Assembly (NCBI GenBank): GCA_963701965.1
Contig: OY969695.1
Coordinates: forward strand, 928,001-992,000
DNA: 64,000 nt
From: an uncultured Gemmatimonadales bacterium
Lineage (GTDB): Bacteria > Gemmatimonadota > Gemmatimonadetes > Gemmatimonadales > Gemmatimonadaceae
Direction of reading: 5' to 3'
Below are positions 9,378-18,653 of this stretch, piece after piece; position 1 is the first letter of the stretch; each line of letters begins with the position of its first letter. The notes under the pieces are model-generated. The model ran no database searches, was not told the DNA's origin, and saw only the letters and a list, made by a program, of their open reading frames with translations. The position numbers and the translations under genes are program-made.

Positions 9378-9896
9378 CGGCAAGAGATTGCAATTCTGCA
9401 AGGTCACCTAGGTCGGATGACCTACTGGCTGCGACGGTCGAAAGTGCCTTCGGTTGAGTGCCTATAGTCGCGGTGGTGGGCCAGTCGGCCGATAACGTCA
9501 CCCTCGAGTACTTAGCGAGGGTCGACGGCACGATCAGCGAAGTACGCCTGCGAACCTCCGGGTGGTAGGCCATTCGGCCTACACGCCCAGGACGCGGTAG
9601 GGGCACACTGTCAATCCTCGTCAGTCTCTGACCAACATGGGGCGACAGAAGCCTCAGAGCTGTCGCGATGGGAGGTGGTCTTGAGCGCGCTATTCGGACA
9701 CCGAAGGCGCCCCACGGCGAGAGAGCGAGGGAGGGTCGCTTACCCCGGATCGGGGGCGACAGATCGGGAACGTTAATGTGCCGCGCGATGGAGGGACAGG
9801 TTCGTGCTCCGAAAGCGTCCGGCACGAGGATCGAGTGTCCATCCGGCAAGAGATTGCGATTCGGCAATGTCGCCCAGACTAGGTCAGATGACCTAC
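9378..9896. repeat. Two degenerate copies (9378-9425, 9844-9896) of a composite operator-like motif
   Basis: Both copies read CGGCAAGAGA-TTGC(N6)GCAA ... TAGGTC(N4)GACCTA-C. Confidence 0.75.
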
Positions 9897-10437
9897 GCGG
9901 AGTCCGAAGTACGAGAGACTCGCGGGTTCCGGAGCAGCTAGGGGCGCGGGTGCGCTGAGTGCGGTGTGGTTCTATCGGCGCCGCATCTCCATACCCGCCA
10001 GGCTCGCGGCGCCGGGCGAGAGTACGTCGCGATCGAGCCATTTCTGGCGTCTCCGCCGGGAGAGGGAGGCCGCCCTTCGAACCCCGGACGAGCGCGCGTG
10101 CATCCGCGGCCACCCGTAAGCAATGCAACAGACCGTGGCCGGAAGCGCGGTCCTAAGCGACCCTCCCCTGCCCTGCCTCGCCTCGCTTCTCGTCGTCGGC
10201 TTGCGACCAGAATGCCAGGGCGCGGACTGTGCCGGCCACACCGTTATTGTTCGGAATATGGGCCTGATCGTCGCGCCGCCGAGGCCAAGGTGGACGTCCT
10301 ATCCTGACGCTGGGCTGCATTCCATTATCGCGGCGCTTGGTGCCGAGGGATGCCATATAGAGCGAACGTGTGTCAACACCGGCCGAAGTTGCACATTTTC
10401 GCCGGTTGAAATTGCACACTCGTCGTGGGGACGAGCC

Positions 10438-10935
10438 CTAGGGCGTCGCGGCCTCCCGAGCGCGGCCGCGTGGTTTGGCCGCGGCGCGCGCCTCGCGGGT
10501 GGAGGCGCGGAGCGTCGCTGAGAGGTCAGCGTGCTGGCGCATGCGGTAACTGTTGCCGCGGATGTTGACAATGTGGCAATGGTGCACCAGTCGATCGATC
10601 AGGGCACTGGCCATGACGTCGTCGCCGAACACCTCGCCCCACTCGTCGAAGCCTTTGTTGCTTGTGAGGACGGTCGCGGCGTGCTCGTAGCGGCGACTCA
10701 TGAGCTGGAAGAAGAGCATCGCCCCGGTCCGCGTGATCGGCAGATACCCGATCTCGTCGACGACCAACACGCTGGGGAAGACGAGCGTCTTCATCCGCTG
10801 CGCGAGGCGACCGGCCTGTTGCGCCTCCTCCAGCGAGGCGATCAAGTCGGCCAGGGTGCCGTAGTAGACGCGCCGCCCGCCCTGGGCCGCGGCGATGGCG
10901 AGACTGATCGCCAGGTGGCTCTTGCCGACACCGGG
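10438..10935 (-). pseudogene. istB: IstB ATPase, 3' part
   Basis: PGVGKSHLA, VLVVDEIGY, RYE, LTSN and LIDRLVHH..GNSYR. Confidence 0.9.
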
Positions 10936-10937
10936 CG

Positions 10938-11271
10938 GTACAACGACATGGTGCCCATCGCGGCGTAGTCCGCGTGCAGTATCCCTGGCACCCGCTCCAC
11001 GGGCAGGACCTGGTCGTGTGGAAGGCGCACACGTCCGGCGGCGGGCGCAGTTACGTGGTCGCGCTGGCGGAATGGAACGATGACCCTGCTGCCGCAGTGG
11101 ATGACGGAGCCTGCCGCGGCGACCGGTGCGGTGGTGGTCGCACGGCCGCACGTGTCGGTCGCAGCGCTCGAGCAACTGCGACGCCTGGTTGACGCGGTGC
11201 GACAGCCGGTGGACTGTCTTCCCCATCCGCCATCGTCACCGTCACCACCGCCCGGGAGCCTCAATGTCTGA
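10938..11271 (+). CDS. Small accessory protein (Y4bD/DUF5372-like), frameshifted near 11075 and lacking its own start
   Basis: QRHGAH..VQYPWHPLHGQ, then LPQWMT..VSVAALEQLRRLV in the adjacent frame. Confidence 0.65.
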
Positions 11272-11455
11272 TCGTCGCACCGCGCTCGTTCCGTCCGCTG
11301 TCCAGCGTTCCCTCGCATTGGGGGAAGGCACCGTACACTGGGAGACGCTGCCGTCCACCGTCCGGTCCGCGGTCCTCGAGATGTGGGTCGCCCTGCTCGC
11401 GGCCCACGTTGCCCAGGCGTCAACCGCAGCCGTGATGACGGAGCCGACCCCGTGA
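11264..11455 (+). CDS. Small accessory protein of the recombinase element
   Basis: 63 aa (..WETLPSTVRSAVLEMWVALL..) with RBS GGGAG; overlaps both neighbouring genes. Confidence 0.6.
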   Translation: MSDRRTALVPSAVQRSLALGEGTVHWETLPSTVRSAVLEMWVALLAAHVAQASTAAVMTEPTP

Positions 11456-13564
11456 CCGGCGCGAAGATCACCCCACCCATGTCGGCCGAACCGCGTACGT
11501 GTACGTGCGCCAGTCGACAATGACGCAGGTGCACGATAACCGGGAGAGTCAGCGGCGGCAGTACGAGCTCGCCGACCACGCCCGGACGCTCGGCTGGACG
11601 CAGGTGGAGGTCATCGACGACGATCTCGGTCGGTCGGGCAGCGGCCGGGTCGCGCGGCCTGGCTTCGAACGACTGGTCTCCGCCGTCTGCCTGGAAGAAG
11701 TCGGTGCCGTGCTCGCGCTGGAAGTCTCTCGTCTCGCGCGCAACAGTCGCGACTGGGCGCATCTCGTTGACCTGTGCGGGCTCACCAGCACACTGATCAT
11801 CGACGGCGAGGGGATCTACGATCCGCGGGACTTCAACGATCGCCTCCTCCTGGGCCTCAAGGGGACGATGAGCGAGTGGGAACTGGGCGTCCTCCGCCAA
11901 CGCTCGCTCGCCGCCCTCAAGCAGAAGGCGGAGCGGGGCGAACTGTACACCAGCGTCGCGATCGGCTTCCTGCGCACGCGCGACGCCGCCGGCACCAGTC
12001 GGGTCGAACTCGATCCCGATCTCCGGATCCAGGAGGCGATCCGCGGCGTGTTCCGCAGCTTCGCGCGGACCGGGAGCGTGCGCCAGACGCTGCTCTGGTT
12101 CCGGAGCGAACGGATCGCGCTGCCCGCCGTGCGCTATGGCCCATTCGGCCGTGCCGTCGAGTGGAAGGTTCCGGTCTACGGCACGGTGCACAAGATGCTG
12201 ACCAACCCGATCTACGCCGGCGCGTACGCGTACGGTCGGACGACCACGCGGACGACCGTGGCGAACGGACGTGCCGAGAAGCGCCGCGGCGCCCACACCG
12301 CGCGGGCCGACTGGGCGGTCTTGCTGCGGGACCACCATCCGGGCTATATCGACTGGAGCGAGTACGAGGCGCATCAGGCGACGATCGCGGAGAACGCGCA
12401 GATGAAGGGACTCCTGGGTGGTCGCGGTGCGCCGCGGCGCGGCATCGCTCTCCTGGCCGGACTGCTCCGCTGTCGTCGGTGCGGACGTCGGCTGCATGTG
12501 ACGTATAGCGGGACCAACGGGACCGTGCGCCGCTACGCGTGCCAGGGCGCGGCGATCAACCACGGGACCGACAAGTGTCTCTCGTTCGGCGGGCGCGTCG
12601 TCGAGGCGGCGGTTGAGGCGGCCGTGCTGACGGTCATCGCGCCGGGCGCGATCGAGGCGGCGATCGGGCATCCGCACAGGCCGATACGGCCCACGAGGAA
12701 CGCGGGGCGCAGGCGCGACTGCGCGTCGAGCAGGCCCGGTACGAGGCCGAGCGTGCGCGGCGCCAGTACGATGCGGTCGATCCCGCGTACCGCCTCGTCG
12801 CGGCCGAGCTGGAGCGACGGTGGAACGCGGCACTCGCCGCGCTGGCCGAGGCGGAGCGCGTGCTGGCCGGCCTCGAGGCCACGACGGCCACCACGCGGCC
12901 CGTCGACCACCGGTCGCTGCTCGCGCTGGCCGATGATCTGCCCGCCGTGTGGCACGACGCGCGCACGGACGTCCGACTGAAGAAGCGGATCGTGCGCGTG
13001 CTGATCGAGGAGATCCTTGTCGATGTCGATATGGGCGCCGCGCAGGTCCAGGGCGTCATCCGGTGGGCCGGCGGACAGCATAGCATGATCACCGTGCGGA
13101 AGAACCGGACCGGCGAGCATCGCCGCACGACCGATCGCGACGTCGTCGCCTTGGTGCGCCAGCTCGTCGCGGTCCTGCCCAATGGCCCGATCGCGGCCGT
13201 CCTCAACCGGCTGGGATACCAGACCGGCAAGGGTAACACGTGGACGGCGAGCCGCGTCGTCGGACTGCGCCACTACTACGAGATCCCCGTCCACGACGTC
13301 GAACGCAAGGCGCGCGAGGGTCTCCTGACGCTGGAAGAGGCGGCGGCCCGCACGGGCGTGAGTCCCTCGAGCGTCCGGCGCTGCATCGCCGACGGACTGC
13401 TGCCGGCCACGCAGGTCGTCGCGTATGCCCCGTGGGTGATCCGGTCCGCGGATCTCGACGTGCCGGCTGTCGCTACCGCGCTCGAACGCGTCCGCACCAG
13501 TCCCCGCGCCCCGCGGCGCATGGACCGCACGCAGCTAAGTCTCGACCCACCATCCACATCGTGA
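11452..13564 (+). CDS. Large serine recombinase, frameshifts near 11472 and 12670-12720
   Basis: AYVYVRQST, DDDLGRSG, EVSRLARN, LLGLKGTMSE, zinc ribbon LRCRRCG, coiled coil and C-terminal HTH. Confidence 0.92.
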
Positions 13565-13587
13565 GGTGACGTAGTATGTCGCTGGAT

Positions 13588-13925
13588 CGGGTGGTCCGAG
13601 GAGCACGACGTTCTCCTTCCGCTCGACGAAGCCCAGGGTGTGGAGACTCTCGATCTGCTCCCGCTTGAGCGAAGGCTGGAAGGTGAAGTCGAAGTCCGCG
13701 AGCGTCTTCACGGCCGGGAGGCGAGAGGAGCGCATCGCCGCTTCCAGCCGACGGTTGTTGCGCAACCCGATCTGTGCGCCGAGCAGGGCTTCGAGTGCGG
13801 CCGCGGCGGGGAGGCTGCCCGCGTCCACGCGCTGGAGGACGGTATCGAGCGCTTCCAAGGCCCTTGGCATCTTGAGGTCGGCGAGTTGCGCGCGCAGGCG
13901 CTCGCGGACGGTCAGCCCCGGTCAT
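13588..13925 (-). pseudogene. istB: IstB ATPase, 5' part
   Basis: LKMPRAL..KTLADFDFTFQPS..ENVVLLGPP; the ATG overlaps the istA stop. Confidence 0.9.
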
Positions 13926-14947
13926 GAGACGGCCTCCGCGAGCGCGGCGTACGCGGCGAGCGGGCGGCGTTCGACGACGACTATGCGGGTCGGGATGGGG
14001 GCCGCCTGGGGATCGCCGGGCCCGGCAGGCGGGACGCCCCGCGGATACGGGCGGGGCGCGAGCGGCTGGAGCGCGGGCCGCTCGTCACGCTCGAAGCGGA
14101 CGCGCGGCGCTTCCCGCGTCGTCCCGTGCACCCGCACGTTCGCGGTCGCCTCGAGCCAGGTGCGCGCCTGCGCGGCGAGATCGGCGTCGCCCAGGAAGTC
14201 GCGCCCGTAGAGGAAGTTCCGCCGCACATAGCTCACCGGCCGCTCGACCTTCCCCTTCGTCTGGGCCCGATACGGGCGACAGGCGCGGATCCGGAACCCC
14301 CAGTGGGCGGCGACCCGCAGGAACTCGGCGTTCTCGAGGAGTCGCCCGCCCTCAGGCCGCCGATCCTCGACGACCACGGCCCGCATCTGATCGAACAGCA
14401 CCTCGCGCGGGACGCCACCGAAGTAACCGAACGCCGTCTCCAACCCGTCGATCACGGCGGCCATCGTCTGCCGCGGGTAGAAGCCGAGCCAGAGGAGCCG
14501 CGAGTAGCCGAGGACGACGAGTAAGGCGTAGCGGCGGCCCCACGGGAAGCGGACCGTGGCGAAGTCGAGCTGCGCCTGCACGCCCGGTGGTGTCTCGAAC
14601 CGGACGATCGGTTCGGGCTCGGGGCGTGGGCGCACCCGGGCGACGTAGTCGCGCAGCTGCGTGATGCCACCGTCGTACCCGGCGGCGCGGACCTCCTCGA
14701 ACAAGCGCACGGCGCTGAGCTCGGGGTACGTCGCGAGCCGGGCGTCGATGATCGGCTGATAGCGCGCCAACTTCCCGGGCGCCGCCCGGCGGATCCGGGG
14801 TGCCGTCACCTCCCGATCGAGCTGGCCCGTCTGGAGCCAGTGATAAATCACGCGGCGACTGACACCGAGCTGCGCGGCGATCGCCGTCTTCGAGAGTCCC
14901 TCGTCCAGCATCTGTCTGAGTAGCACGAGTCGATCCGCTCCGTACAC
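13922..14947 (-). CDS. istA: IS21 transposase IstA
   Basis: N-terminal HTH, RFETPPGVQAQLDF, LGYSR, GGVPREVLFDQM and RAQTKGKVER. Confidence 0.95.
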   Translation of the reverse strand: MYGADRLVLLRQMLDEGLSKTAIAAQLGVSRRVIYHWLQTGQLDREVTAPRIRRAAPGKLARYQPIIDARLATYPELSAVRLFEEVRAAGYDGGITQLRDYVARVRPRPEPEPIVRFETPPGVQAQLDFATVRFPWGRRYALLVVLGYSRLLWLGFYPRQTMAAVIDGLETAFGYFGGVPREVLFDQMRAVVVEDRRPEGGRLLENAEFLRVAAHWGFRIRACRPYRAQTKGKVERPVSYVRRNFLYGRDFLGDADLAAQARTWLEATANVRVHGTTREAPRVRFERDERPALQPLAPRPYPRGVPPAGPGDPQAAPIPTRIVVVERRPLAAYAALAEAVS

Positions 14948-15331
14948 TGCGTCTCCCCAGCAGAGGAGACGGGAACGTGGCACCGATCGGCGCGATGCCG
15001 AGGCCGGCGCTCGACCCGAGCTGGCCTGACACCCCGCCCTAGGACTGGAGTGGACTGTGCAACTTCAACCGGTGAAAGTGCGCAATCTCACATTGGTGAT
15101 GACAACGTGTCGCCCAGCGCGCCGTAGAGCACTCCTCGGGTCCGTAGTGGTGCAGCCCGACCCTCCTCAACGGGCCGCGTGTCGCAGAGTCGGCACGCCA
15201 ATGCTGCGCGCGGACCAACCGCAACCGGTCGCAACCGGTGTCCGCGGTCGCGGCAGTCCACCACTCCGAGGTGTTTTGGTGGCCGTAGGGCTCGGGCCCG
15301 CTTCCCGCGTCGCCGACCTCGGAAAGGACAC

Positions 15332-15529: not shown

Positions 15530-15804
15530 GTGTCACATCCTGGGCTGGGCCCCCGCGAACGCCTATCGCAGGATGTCGCCTGCGTCCAGCCCGAGGCGTA
15601 CCCCAAGGCTTCGCCGTCCGCTGTGATCTTGAAAGCAATCGGATTGCCGGCAGCGTCGCGAACCACTTCGGCCAGTCCCAACGCGCCCAGCTCTTCGCCG
15701 GCCAGGTTGATCCGCTCGATCTCCTCGTCCCGGCGCTTGCGGCGTGCGCCAACCTGGTCGTGGCTCGTGCCCTTCGCCCTTTGCTTCTTACGGGGGTTGC
15801 TCAC
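15502..15804 (-). CDS. Hypothetical protein
   Basis: 100-aa ORF overlapping the stop of the tandem-HTH gene. Confidence 0.5.
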   Translation of the reverse strand: MSNPRKKQRAKGTSHDQVGARRKRRDEEIERINLAGEELGALGLAEVVRDAAGNPIAFKITADGEALGYASGWTQATSCDRRSRGPSPGCDTCGTRMMIC

Positions 15805-16406
15805 GATGAGACTCCCGGATGGGTTGCATGGCCTGGGTTGCTCACGGAGTGACCCTGCATCCGGTTAGGACTGGTTCCTGACATTGGCGACACTGGCGCG
15901 GTTGAGCGTACGGACGGGAATAGGTCTTCGACAGGCCTGTCCAAGAACGCGGCGATACGGGCCCTGAGAGCATCACTCCCTTGTCGCTGACGCGTCAGCA
16001 CGCACACCAGGTGGTTGTAACTCGACTGAAGTTTTCTAGCCGCCACTGGGCCCGACATCTTCAGCCCGGCCAGCCGCTCATTGAATGCCTTCATGTTTGG
16101 GTGTGACGCTGCCGGCTGCGACTGGCGGTCGAGCGCTAACGCCGCACGTCGTCTGGCACGCCGTTGTTCCAGCCCCGGAAAGATCTGATCCTCGGGCACA
16201 CCAAGGAATCTGGCGAGTCGATCTCTAAGCCCTGGCGACGCGAACCGCTTGCCACTGAGGACTAGCTGCAGGTGCGCGTAGGAAACGCCGAGCCACACAG
16301 CCGCTTTGGCTCCCGTCAGTCCGCTGTACGAGATGATCGCCTGAAAGAGTGCAATCCGCTCTCTGTCCGTGAAGCCGGCGGCGCCGACATTGGGAAGAAT
16401 TCGCAT
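15801..16406 (-). CDS. Protein with two tandem XRE-like HTH domains
   Basis: Internal repeat: AAVWLGVSYAHLQLVLSGKR..LRDRLARFLG / AARKLQSSYNHLVCVLTRQR..LRARIAAFLD. Confidence 0.75.
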   Translation of the reverse strand: MRILPNVGAAGFTDRERIALFQAIISYSGLTGAKAAVWLGVSYAHLQLVLSGKRFASPGLRDRLARFLGVPEDQIFPGLEQRRARRRAALALDRQSQPAASHPNMKAFNERLAGLKMSGPVAARKLQSSYNHLVCVLTRQRQGSDALRARIAAFLDRPVEDLFPSVRSTAPVSPMSGTSPNRMQGHSVSNPGHATHPGVSS

Positions 16407-16481
16407 TGAGGCTGGTGTGCAACAGGATGGATGGTGGTGTCCGCGATCGGCGGGGTCTCGATCACGAGTGACGGCGTCGTT

Positions 16482-16772
16482 CTATGACGCCTTGGCTCGG
16501 GGCGTTGGTCGGCCGCCACCGCGCTTCCTCGGCAGCGGATCAGCCTGGTGCAATGCCTTGCCAAGTTCTTCCCAATTGATGCCGAGGCCGACGCACAAGG
16601 CGCGCAGCTTCCGAAATCCGATGTTCCGTTCCCCCCGTTCGACCGCACCCACGAAACCGCGATCGATGTGGGCCTCATAGGCGAAGCGTTCTTGCGAGTA
16701 ACCCGCCGCGCGACGAAAGGCACGTATGACCTCCGCCAGCGCCGCGAGTTCGTCATATCGCTCTACAGCCAT
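16482..16772 (-). CDS. XRE-family HTH regulator
   Basis: IRAFRRAAGYSQERFAYEAHIDRGFVGAVERGERNI. Confidence 0.9.
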   Translation of the reverse strand: MAVERYDELAALAEVIRAFRRAAGYSQERFAYEAHIDRGFVGAVERGERNIGFRKLRALCVGLGINWEELGKALHQADPLPRKRGGGRPTPRAKAS

Positions 16773-16889
16773 GTTGCTTCTTGGTGCTCCAGATCAGAAG
16801 TGAGAGGGGGCGGTGGCGCATGTCAACGAACCATGCCCTCATGACGGTTCACGGTAACACGGATCGCGACGTATCGCGAATGTTCATAT

Positions 16890-16941
16890 GTCTACCAATC
16901 GGCGGACGACTGACTGGCGGTCTACCGATTGGCGGTCGACC
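16890..16941. promoter_or_regulatory. Tandem 15-bp operator-like repeats between divergent XRE genes
   Basis: GTCTACCAATCGGCG / GACGACTGACTGGCG / GTCTACCGATTGGCG / GTCGACC. Confidence 0.65.
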
Positions 16942-16971
16942 AAAAGGCCCCCACGCGCTAATCTCGCGGCC

Positions 16972-17241
16972 GTGTCGAACCGCTCAGAGCTGCTTGCCAT
17001 TGGCCAAAGCCTGCGCAGCCTCCGTGAGGCCGCCGGAATGACGCAGGAAGACCTTGCAGAGGCGGCCGATCTCCACCGCACCGAGATCGGTCGGTTTGAA
17101 CGGGCCGAGCGGAATATCGGCATCTTGACCGTCCGCAGAGTCCTCGCCGCCCTGGGCAAGTCGTGGATTGACCTGGGGCGGGAGCTAGAGGCCCGTGACC
17201 CGTTGAACCGGGCTACTCGCCGGAGCGGTCGCCGCGCTTAG
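16972..17241 (+). CDS. XRE-family HTH regulator
   Basis: IGQSLRSLREAAGMTQEDLAEAADLHRTEIGRFERAERNI; probable GTG start at 16972. Confidence 0.9.
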   Translation: MSNRSELLAIGQSLRSLREAAGMTQEDLAEAADLHRTEIGRFERAERNIGILTVRRVLAALGKSWIDLGRELEARDPLNRATRRSGRRA

Positions 17242-17245
17242 GCAG

Positions 17246-17263
17246 CATTGCAGTTCTGCAATG
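17246..17263. promoter_or_regulatory. Palindromic operator candidate upstream of the TPR gene
   Basis: CATTGCAG-TT-CTGCAATG. Confidence 0.65.
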
Positions 17264-17366
17264 TTCCGCGCATGGGTCATTTGAGCCTATTGCGATCGTA
17301 GTTGGCGCCATAAGTTCATGCGCCGCGCGGATTGGACTTTCATCACGCGACGGCGCAATCGATCCC

Positions 17367-18653
17367 TTGGCCTGGACAGACCTGTGGCGGACGAACGGTC
17401 CCTCTTTCTATTCCGATGAACCCCTCCTCCGTCATAGCGCATTCTTCGCGACGGCGGCGACGACCCCAGACGATTCCCCCGAGTTCGAGCTACTCACCGT
17501 TGGCCTGCTGGTGCTGCGTCTGCTCGACCGATGGCGGGCACGCGACACAACGGACCGGGACGTCAAGTTCAGCGAATTCATCGCCGTCAAACGCCGCGTG
17601 GAGGCCATGTCGGAGGGGCCGGCGAGGCGGATATTGGCGGAGCTAGTCAACACGATCAGCGCCTTTGCCTACGGCCGCTCCGACTCTCGGATGGCCACGC
17701 TGCTCGCCTTTGCCGAAATCCTCGAACACGCCAGCCAATGGGAACCGGCCGCGGACACTTACCGCACCGCCATTGACTTGGCCGGCGATCGGATCGCGGA
17801 CCGCGAGCTGCTGCCACGGGCGTACGATCGCGCCGCCTACTGCATCCGACTGGTCGGTCGTCTCGATGAAGCGCTCGAATTGGTGAACGAGGGGAGCGCC
17901 ATCGCGGCTGAGATCCGCGACCCCTATTGGGCGCTGCGTTTGCGTATCAACGCCGCCCTGATCGAAGTGCGGAAGGGAAATCTGCCGGAGGCCGAATTCC
18001 AGTTGGACGCGATCGTCGAGGATGCCGAGACCACAGGTCAGCTCGAGATGGTGGCGTGGGGCAAGCATGAACGGGGACACGTGGCCTACGAGAGGAACGA
18101 GAACGAACTGGCCGCCACGCTATTCCACGCCGCGAGCCTCGGACATACCGATCCTGCGCGCGTCCAGCGCGCGGTCCTTGACCTGGCGCTGGCCCTGGCG
18201 GATCTGGGCCACATTGGGCACGCGCAGCGGGCCTACCAGGTCGTGCGTAACGCCAGGGAAGACCACGACGGCATACGGGCGTTGGCCGGAATCAACTTGA
18301 TGCGACTCGCCCACATGACCGACGACCGGGCGCCCTTTGAGCAGCTCCGTCGCGAGCTGGGGAGTGAGCGCATGACGGGCCGGTTGCGAGCGCACTATCA
18401 CCTGATTGCCGGGCAAGGACTACGGCGGTTCGGCGATCCGGATGGGGCTCGTGCCGCATTTCAGCGCGCCATTGAAGTGGCCGAACAGTTCAAGGTGTTC
18501 AAGCTCGTCGTCGAAGCTGAGGCGCTACTCAACGCGACTGGGGACGAGCGCCCGCGGCCGAGAAAGACGAAAGCGGGCGCCAGGGCACTGGCTCCGATTC
18601 TGGCCGACATTGACCAGAGGCGCGGACCGTTCGCAGGGGCGGCACAAGACTGA
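17367..18653 (+). CDS. Cytoplasmic TPR-repeat protein, candidate peptide receptor
   Basis: 428 aa, all-helical, with TPR-like units (LVGRLDEALEL, RKGNLPEAEFQL, DLGHIGHAQRAY, FGDPDGARAAFQRA); no signal peptide seen. Confidence 0.8.
   Translation: MAWTDLWRTNGPSFYSDEPLLRHSAFFATAATTPDDSPEFELLTVGLLVLRLLDRWRARDTTDRDVKFSEFIAVKRRVEAMSEGPARRILAELVNTISAFAYGRSDSRMATLLAFAEILEHASQWEPAADTYRTAIDLAGDRIADRELLPRAYDRAAYCIRLVGRLDEALELVNEGSAIAAEIRDPYWALRLRINAALIEVRKGNLPEAEFQLDAIVEDAETTGQLEMVAWGKHERGHVAYERNENELAATLFHAASLGHTDPARVQRAVLDLALALADLGHIGHAQRAYQVVRNAREDHDGIRALAGINLMRLAHMTDDRAPFEQLRRELGSERMTGRLRAHYHLIAGQGLRRFGDPDGARAAFQRAIEVAEQFKVFKLVVEAEALLNATGDERPRPRKTKAGARALAPILADIDQRRGPFAGAAQD

Follow-up and report, generated by a model that had tools for sequence, protein, structure and literature searches.

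A large serine recombinase element with its attachment site in the 5′ end of a DUF5372 gene: a likely circle-only translation switch

We analysed a stretch of 64,000 nucleotides from an uncultured Gemmatimonadales bacterium (Gemmatimonadota; assembly GCA_963701965.1, contig OY969695.1, positions 928,001 to 992,000), hereafter the window, and a 2.66-kb element within it (10932-13591) that carries the gene of a large serine recombinase (LSR). As listed in Table 1, this element is inserted into an insertion sequence (IS) of the IS21 type, at 10389-15085, in which istA, istB and the terminal inverted repeats are all present, and it splits istB within the Walker A codons. Joining the flanks without the element gave an uninterrupted, in-frame IstB across the Walker A motif. 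The element occurs once in the source genome, where no unoccupied copy of the same IS21 site was found. Its three overlapping open reading frames (ORFs) run opposite to istB: the start-less body of a DUF5372 gene, a small ORF named orfC, and the LSR gene. The LSR matched the resolvase catalytic domain PF00239, the recombinase domain PF07508 and the zinc-ribbon PF13408 above cut-off, with a C-terminal helix-turn-helix (HTH) domain, PF12728, and its N-terminal serine was invariant in 61 relatives. DUF4368 was not matched at E ≤ 0.1 by either LSR piece, and no Pfam or NCBIfam family was matched by orfC.

Table 1. Features of the LSR element and of its host IS21 (window positions).
Feature	Position	Strand	Remark
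IS21 terminal inverted repeat, istB side	10389-10421		33-nt pair, 85% complementary with 15053-15085
istB, 3′ part, from the Walker A glycine onward	10438-10933	-	Pfam IstB_IS21, profile 102-235, E 1.4e-53
attL core CGGG	10932-10935	+	likely central dinucleotide GG at 10934-10935; position from homologs
Left att arm, mirror of the right arm	10935-10956	+	CAT at 10947-10949; doubles as codons 6-12 of the junction gene
DUF5372 (Y4bD-like) body of the junction gene	10935-11271	+	without start or ribosome-binding site of its own; frameshift near 11071
Internal GTG, sole alternative start	10974-10976	+	no ribosome-binding site; duplex -1.7 kcal/mol
orfC, conserved small ORF of 63 amino acids	11264-11455	+	own ribosome-binding site; start overlaps junction-gene stop, stop overlaps LSR start
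LSR, about 700 amino acids	11452-13564	+	PF00239, PF07508, PF13408, PF12728; start inferred from overlap
Shine-Dalgarno GAGGTG of the junction gene	13563-13568	+	overlaps LSR stop TGA (13562-13564)
Right att arm	13569-13591	+	stranded ATG 13576-13578, codons 1-5, attR core CGGG 13588-13591
istB, 5′ part	13592-13870	-	Pfam IstB_IS21, profile 12-100, E 5.9e-19
istA, transposase of the host IS21	13922-14983	-	Pfam rve, E 2.7e-13
IS21 terminal inverted repeat, istA side	15053-15085		pairs with 10389-10421

The DUF5372 gene is divided between the two ends of the element. The initial annotation had described GAGGTG overlapping the LSR stop at the right end, followed after 7 nt by an ATG running into the CGGG core, and a left end lacking a ribosome-binding site (RBS), and all of these were found. 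The duplex energy of GAGGTG is -7.0 kcal/mol, against the weak value at GTG 10974. When the ends were joined at CGGG, the RBS and ATG came into frame with the DUF5372 body, and we refer to the assembled frame as the junction gene. With RBS and start at the right end and the body at the left, only joined ends would yield the complete protein. Across the junction lies a symmetric attachment (att) site of 30 bp with ATG at positions 1-3, the likely crossover dinucleotide GG at 15-16 and a mirror CAT at 28-30; the place of the ATG makes it also part of the presumed recombinase-binding arm. The in-frame ORF agrees with the one given in the initial annotation; the window copy is frameshifted and, as assembled, encodes only about 50 correct residues of the junction protein. 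The annotation, right about the junction, had passed over three frameshifts, the role of the ATG in the att arm and the stop-start overlap with the LSR.

Related loci were taken from GTDB genomes (47), metagenomes (the best 80 of 599) and plasmids. Among 119 loci with a full-length LSR, 100 were kept and 19 without an LSR stop or a DUF N-terminus were dropped; at LSR identity thresholds of 90% and 60% the 100 gave 71 clusters and 19 groups, respectively. The divergent loci L053, L054, L063, L072, L076 and L080 were left out of the resolved set. Named hosts include Gemmatimonadota, alpha-, beta- and gamma-proteobacteria and Planctomycetota. To define the 30-bp symmetric site, the right-arm weight matrix was reverse-complemented and run over the left end with no information on frame; in 2 of the 71 clusters (L035, L051) the right arm was placed by hand. 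The junction was in frame in 69 of 71 clusters, compared with one in three expected by chance, for which the binomial p (1e-30) overstates the case because the clusters are related to one another. For the remaining two clusters (L019, L128), which were out of frame, no credible left arm was seen. Identity between the two ends peaked at positions 15-16 (62 and 58 of 69); the ends share the first core base in 62 clusters and the whole dinucleotide in 55. The crossover that joins the element ends also rebuilds the target genes. Walker A motifs were rebuilt in 21 of 57, which the flanks tested assign mostly to IstB and once to an AAA_5 ATPase. Other rebuilt targets were the IS66 transposase and TnpB, rve, IS110, IS4, IS1380-type and DUF772 transposases, a sigma-54 activator, an FtsX permease and an ABC binding protein. 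Spacers between att site and domain measured 12, 15, 18 or 21 nt, i.e. whole-codon steps only. Elements of the window's type were about 2.55-2.72 kb long (2546-2715 bp).

The frame was also kept where comparison of copies fixed the ends, namely on pNGR234a (two copies), a Burkholderia plasmid (two) and a Microvirga plasmid (three). The conservation of frame across the joined site (attP) that the initial annotation had predicted thus appears in the clusters and in three more multi-copy families, and the in-frame split geometry is common to relatives in several bacterial phyla. The cores of the Microvirga element do not match between ends; three loci with this element in istB (L062, L067, L071) differ in the central dinucleotides of their two ends, and the flanks of L062 appear swapped by rearrangement.

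Translation signals were compared in 62 relatives. An RBS of -6 kcal/mol or stronger was found at the right arm in 48 and at the mirror place in 2. A start codon stood at position 1 in 56 of the 62, and all six without it have an in-frame start 9 nt upstream, five of them with an RBS near -9; these five share 66-88% LSR identity and possibly represent few events. Internal starts were absent from 51 of the 62 bodies and RBS-backed in one, so that GTG 10974, normal translation from which in the integrated state would have refuted the initial proposal, is not conserved as a start. The ratio of nonsynonymous to synonymous substitution rates (dN/dS) was 0.29 for the gene body (26 disjoint pairs) and 0.14 for the LSR. 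Once the element is integrated, the frame opened by the stranded start continues for 5-91 codons in the target DNA (46 loci).

Judged from the sequences, four features are not explained by the symmetry of the site: the one-sided RBS, the replacement starts, the whole-codon spacer and the selected, start-less body. The frame, the one-sided RBS and the missing internal starts support the initial proposal that full-length expression would be limited to the excised circle, and translation restricted to the circle is very probably under selection.

Other devices at the junction were considered. A hybrid sigma-70 promoter was rejected, as the best -35 reached 3 of 6 positions or fewer in 59 of 62; the left arm holds a -10-like hexamer with 4-5 of 6 matches in 42 of 62 (the sigma-70 type being the one scored). 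Fusion of the gene body to starts of the target gene was rejected since the target flank provides a start with RBS in 1 of 50. An RNA guide was also considered, and the element has no evident non-coding region, although no RNA family search was made.

Joined ends were looked for in public sequences, and at the protein level they do occur in public assemblies. A profile search gave 4195 DUF5372-like clusters at 50% identity, and among the best 150 matches eight proteins had N-termini fitting a junction. The N-terminus of P0056 equals the right end of locus L105 at 14 of 16 residues and extends back into the LSR 3′ end. P0046 and P0045 agree with a right end at 5 of 5 residues and P0088 at 4 of 5; each of these four matches the element that is also nearest by gene body, and the other four proteins gave weaker matches. 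Atlas neighbours of P0045 are DUF5372 clusters. Contigs of 2719, 2729 and 2733 bp carry three of the seven junction proteins with known contig size, compared with none of eight control sizes, and these lengths would fit one element plus the terminal overlap left by an assembler. Such proteins may come from circles or from tandem dimers. Joined attP DNA was not found in 165 collected sequences, in viral contigs or in 401 genomes of the same phylum (one strict pattern), a null that does not show absence, the patterns being narrow; two matches among the 165 sequences were a neighbouring second element. Two public runs (X1, X2) that contain relatives only gave no end-to-end joint.

Several observations weigh against a circle-only translation start. 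The ATG belongs to the att-arm motif, and ATG is likewise present in the mirror arm of 47 of 62 relatives. The count of 56 position-1 starts is partly circular, because the seed pattern of the arm model already contained the ATG. The attP codons, with dN/dS 1.11, are conserved as DNA and not as protein. The RBS is weak at 14 of the 62 right ends and missing in L131, and reaches only -3.9 in the pNGR234a copies and -5.0 in the Burkholderia copies. Both LSR and orfC are preceded by a strong RBS (LSR mean -9.5), and RNA structure gave no signal of RBS occlusion for LSR, orfC or the junction gene. Among library matches, a Met nine residues before the mirror His showed no enrichment, being seen in 6 of 106, against 14 and 13 at other distances.

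Finally, the window copy is itself disrupted by one-base frameshifts in DUF5372 (near 11071) and in the LSR (near 11470 and 12665), and the second half of its DUF5372 body lies in another frame. Contigs of related elements from two public runs lack these three differences. Each of the three is within or next to a base run. At three in 2.66 kb they are denser than a rough genome background of at least about 0.4 frame splits per 10 kb (146 paralog loci); local assembly error and decay are therefore both possible.

Taking these points together, we regard the element as probably one whose att site lies in the 5′ end of DUF5372 and acts as a circle-only translation switch, likely promoting re-integration. 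Excision by the LSR would take place at the 2-bp core. In the circular form, ribosomes that have reached the LSR stop would come upon the RBS 14-21 nt further on and cross attP. Translation would end on the LSR start, or on orfC which ends on the LSR start, raising LSR output, so that the ORFs would form a closed chain of LSR, DUF5372, orfC and again LSR. The small SH3/KOW-like protein could assist attP × attB recombination by putative LSR binding or by countering orfC, and integration would switch the junction gene off again. Recombination directionality factors (RDFs) act on the integrated state of LSR elements. A protein made only from attP would therefore most likely serve integration, a role to which we give about an even chance. 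The better candidate excision factor is orfC, since it carries a separate RBS that would allow its expression in the integrated state. A wider proposal falls somewhat short of even chances: that a large family of IS-parasitising LSR elements, with the 4195 DUF5372-like clusters as its extent, uses the att site as a translation switch, the recombinase arm serving also as start codon, for a circle-only integration cofactor of a new class, the opposite of an RDF and possibly target-setting, within a ring of coupled frames.

The switch could instead be mainly one of translational coupling, ribosomes crossing attP boosting the LSR while the DUF5372 protein has a minor or separate role. The junction-gene stop overlaps the LSR start in 45 of 62 relatives, the gene having about 160 codons and overlapping orfC in another frame. 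Along this overlap about 60 of its codons, poorly conserved, have stayed free of stops, and the third frame, which is not used, is free of stops across the final 60 codons in 1 of 45. The order in the window's clade is junction gene, orfC, LSR, with the first stopping on orfC and orfC stopping on the LSR. All of this favours coupling. However, the DUF5372 body is under purifying selection and is modelled with a confident fold, and in the 3.3-kb pNGR234a type the junction gene ends far from the LSR. Given the strong, unoccluded RBS of the LSR, coupling would add to LSR output without being required for it. We consider coupling as the main function unlikely.

A QL[SD]LF-like motif was seen in orfC (near-invariant Q..L; 11264-11455 in the window) and, by a loose regular expression, in the LSR C-termini of 30 of 71 clusters (13530-13564 in the window). 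It resembles a beta-clamp-binding motif, and it may tie orfC and the LSR to replication.

That the circle-only protein is an excision-type directionality factor or a brake, which would block re-integration, keep the circle free or trigger excision of a sister copy, seems improbable. LSR directionality factors are small and structurally diverse, as far as the available part of the source describes (10.1101/2024.08.21.608926), and several genomes hold multiple copies. An excision factor, however, is needed when the element is integrated, exactly when the junction gene has no start, and a non-replicating 2.7-kb circle without a rep gene would presumably gain little from staying free.

A role in picking the target, i.e. 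conserved motifs in other IS genes, and not the direction was judged equally improbable. On a quick LSR tree of 50 rows, with classes assigned by the author from the flanks, 14 target classes changed 13 times, compared with 27 changes after shuffling. The repeated shifts of class and the small SH3/KOW-like barrel predicted for the protein speak for target selection by DUF5372; on the other side, the class tracks LSR clades, so the LSR DNA-binding domains may suffice. Because kin share target labels, the tree does not separate LSR from DUF5372 as the determinant.

Across loci L001-L164, most insertions hit a conserved catalytic motif of another mobile element, although Walker A codons are also common in ABC transporters. 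This preference could reflect targeting or survivor bias. In one Planctomycetota genome six copies (L035-L040) lie in repeated, apparently non-coding sequence followed by simple repeats, and their RBS and GTG stand about 90 nt past the LSR stop. At L024/L025 (6025-6130) a second element of the family starts about 60 nt past the first, both apparently in one IS66 transposase gene. L063, L072, L075 and L166-L168 represent a subtype of 3.0-3.3 kb in which the LSR is preceded by an additional ORF that looks HTH-like by eye.

It is very improbable that the junction frame is a by-product, the ATG being att-arm sequence and nothing else and the gene being translated in the integrated state from internal or leaky starts: the mirror ATG and the unselected attP codons agree with this, whereas the one-sided RBS, the replacement starts, the spacer steps of three and the lack of internal starts speak against it, as does the modelled protein, whose first strand would be removed by a start at the position of GTG 10974.

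The DUF5372 protein was modelled (predicted local distance difference test, pLDDT, 86.5) as a small beta-barrel with a helix. PF17342 was matched by 39 of 61 intact relatives at E ≤ 0.05 (best 1.6e-10). The window copy, scored over the stretch before the frameshift, gave E 0.0032 and 17.9 bits against a curated cut-off of 25. The best structural match, to a KOW/SH3-like fold, was weak (Z 5.4, root-mean-square deviation 1.4, 46 aligned residues). Foldseek with the model returned nothing at E ≤ 0.001, and a PDB sequence search with the DUF5372 profile nothing under E 0.03. The weak KOW/SH3 likeness of the model indicates no function.

Around the host IS21, no target duplication was visible at 10380-10390 and 15085-15095. 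Upstream of it, a sequence of about 50 nt with internal palindromes is present in two imperfect copies (9378-9425 and 9844-9897), 466 nt apart, which are possibly candidate protein-binding sites. Beyond it, at 15801-18653, lies a cluster of ORFs resembling small HTH regulators by eye, together with a 428-aa repeat-like protein; this cluster suggests a genomic island.

The nearest described relative is an element of 3325 bp on pNGR234a of Sinorhizobium fredii NGR234, the genes of which are presumably y4bA-y4bD and its name NGRIS-4. Its LSR belongs to the same family (E 2.6e-188), and two identical copies are present. Like the window element, it lies inside transposase genes, and its DUF5372 gene is divided between the two ends, which join in frame at a TT core. 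It differs in its 3.3-kb size and in extra DNA between DUF5372 and LSR, where the window element of 2.66 kb has an overlapped chain of three ORFs. By these comparisons the window element is a sister subtype of the 3.3-kb type.

Lyras and Rood are said to have described in 2000 a circle-junction promoter of tnpX in Tn4451/Tn4453, and Tn4451 also uses an LSR. In IS1111/IS110 elements, according to the available part of the source, a promoter formed where the ends meet in a circular intermediate activates a gene of the element (PMC11187229). These systems assemble a promoter at the junction, whereas the window element would join RBS, start and first codons to a gene body; the -35/-10 pairing of junction promoters is not seen in the window's family, as no -35 hexamer fits the junction.

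In the integration-dependent immunity of mycobacteriophage BPs, as far as the accessible text describes, attP lies inside an ORF, as in the window element, and integration alters the gene product (PMC4557955). By the same part of that source, integration removes a C-terminal degradation tag from the BPs repressor, and this integrated form is the active one (PMC4557955). The window gene loses its N-terminus and initiation signals and would be off. It is cut after codon 5, its product is modelled as a beta-barrel and not an HTH protein, and the element is IS-sized and not a phage.

TndX-like multi-targeting LSRs are described by Durrant et al., in the part of the source that was available, as transposon-like, inserting at a central dinucleotide in many target genes and marked as a clade by DUF4368 (PMC10083194). 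The window's LSR family shares the multi-target insertion; the window LSR differs in having no DUF4368 match. An accessory gene across attP is not described for that clade in the available main text (PMC10083194, supplements aside). In the open-access literature no paper on the DUF5372/y4b family was found; ISfinder, subscription journals and the LSR tables of PMC10083194 may list these elements. None of the junction promoters, BPs and multi-targeting LSRs compared assembles a translation start across attP, as these are presented in the available parts of the sources.

How transposon-like serine recombinases sense whether they are free or inserted is an open question, to which junction promoters and excision factors are the known answers. 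The whole family apparently uses translation initiation across attP, which gives DUF5372 its first testable role and would explain the erratic DUF5372 N-termini in databases. Genome-engineering screens that provide no more than the LSR and att sites would rate the LSRs of this family poorly if the protein is a cofactor of integration. The catalytic motifs in which these elements insert belong to other mobile elements (IstB Walker A, IS66, IS3-type, IS110 and more), so that the family may curb IS activity in soil and symbiotic bacteria.

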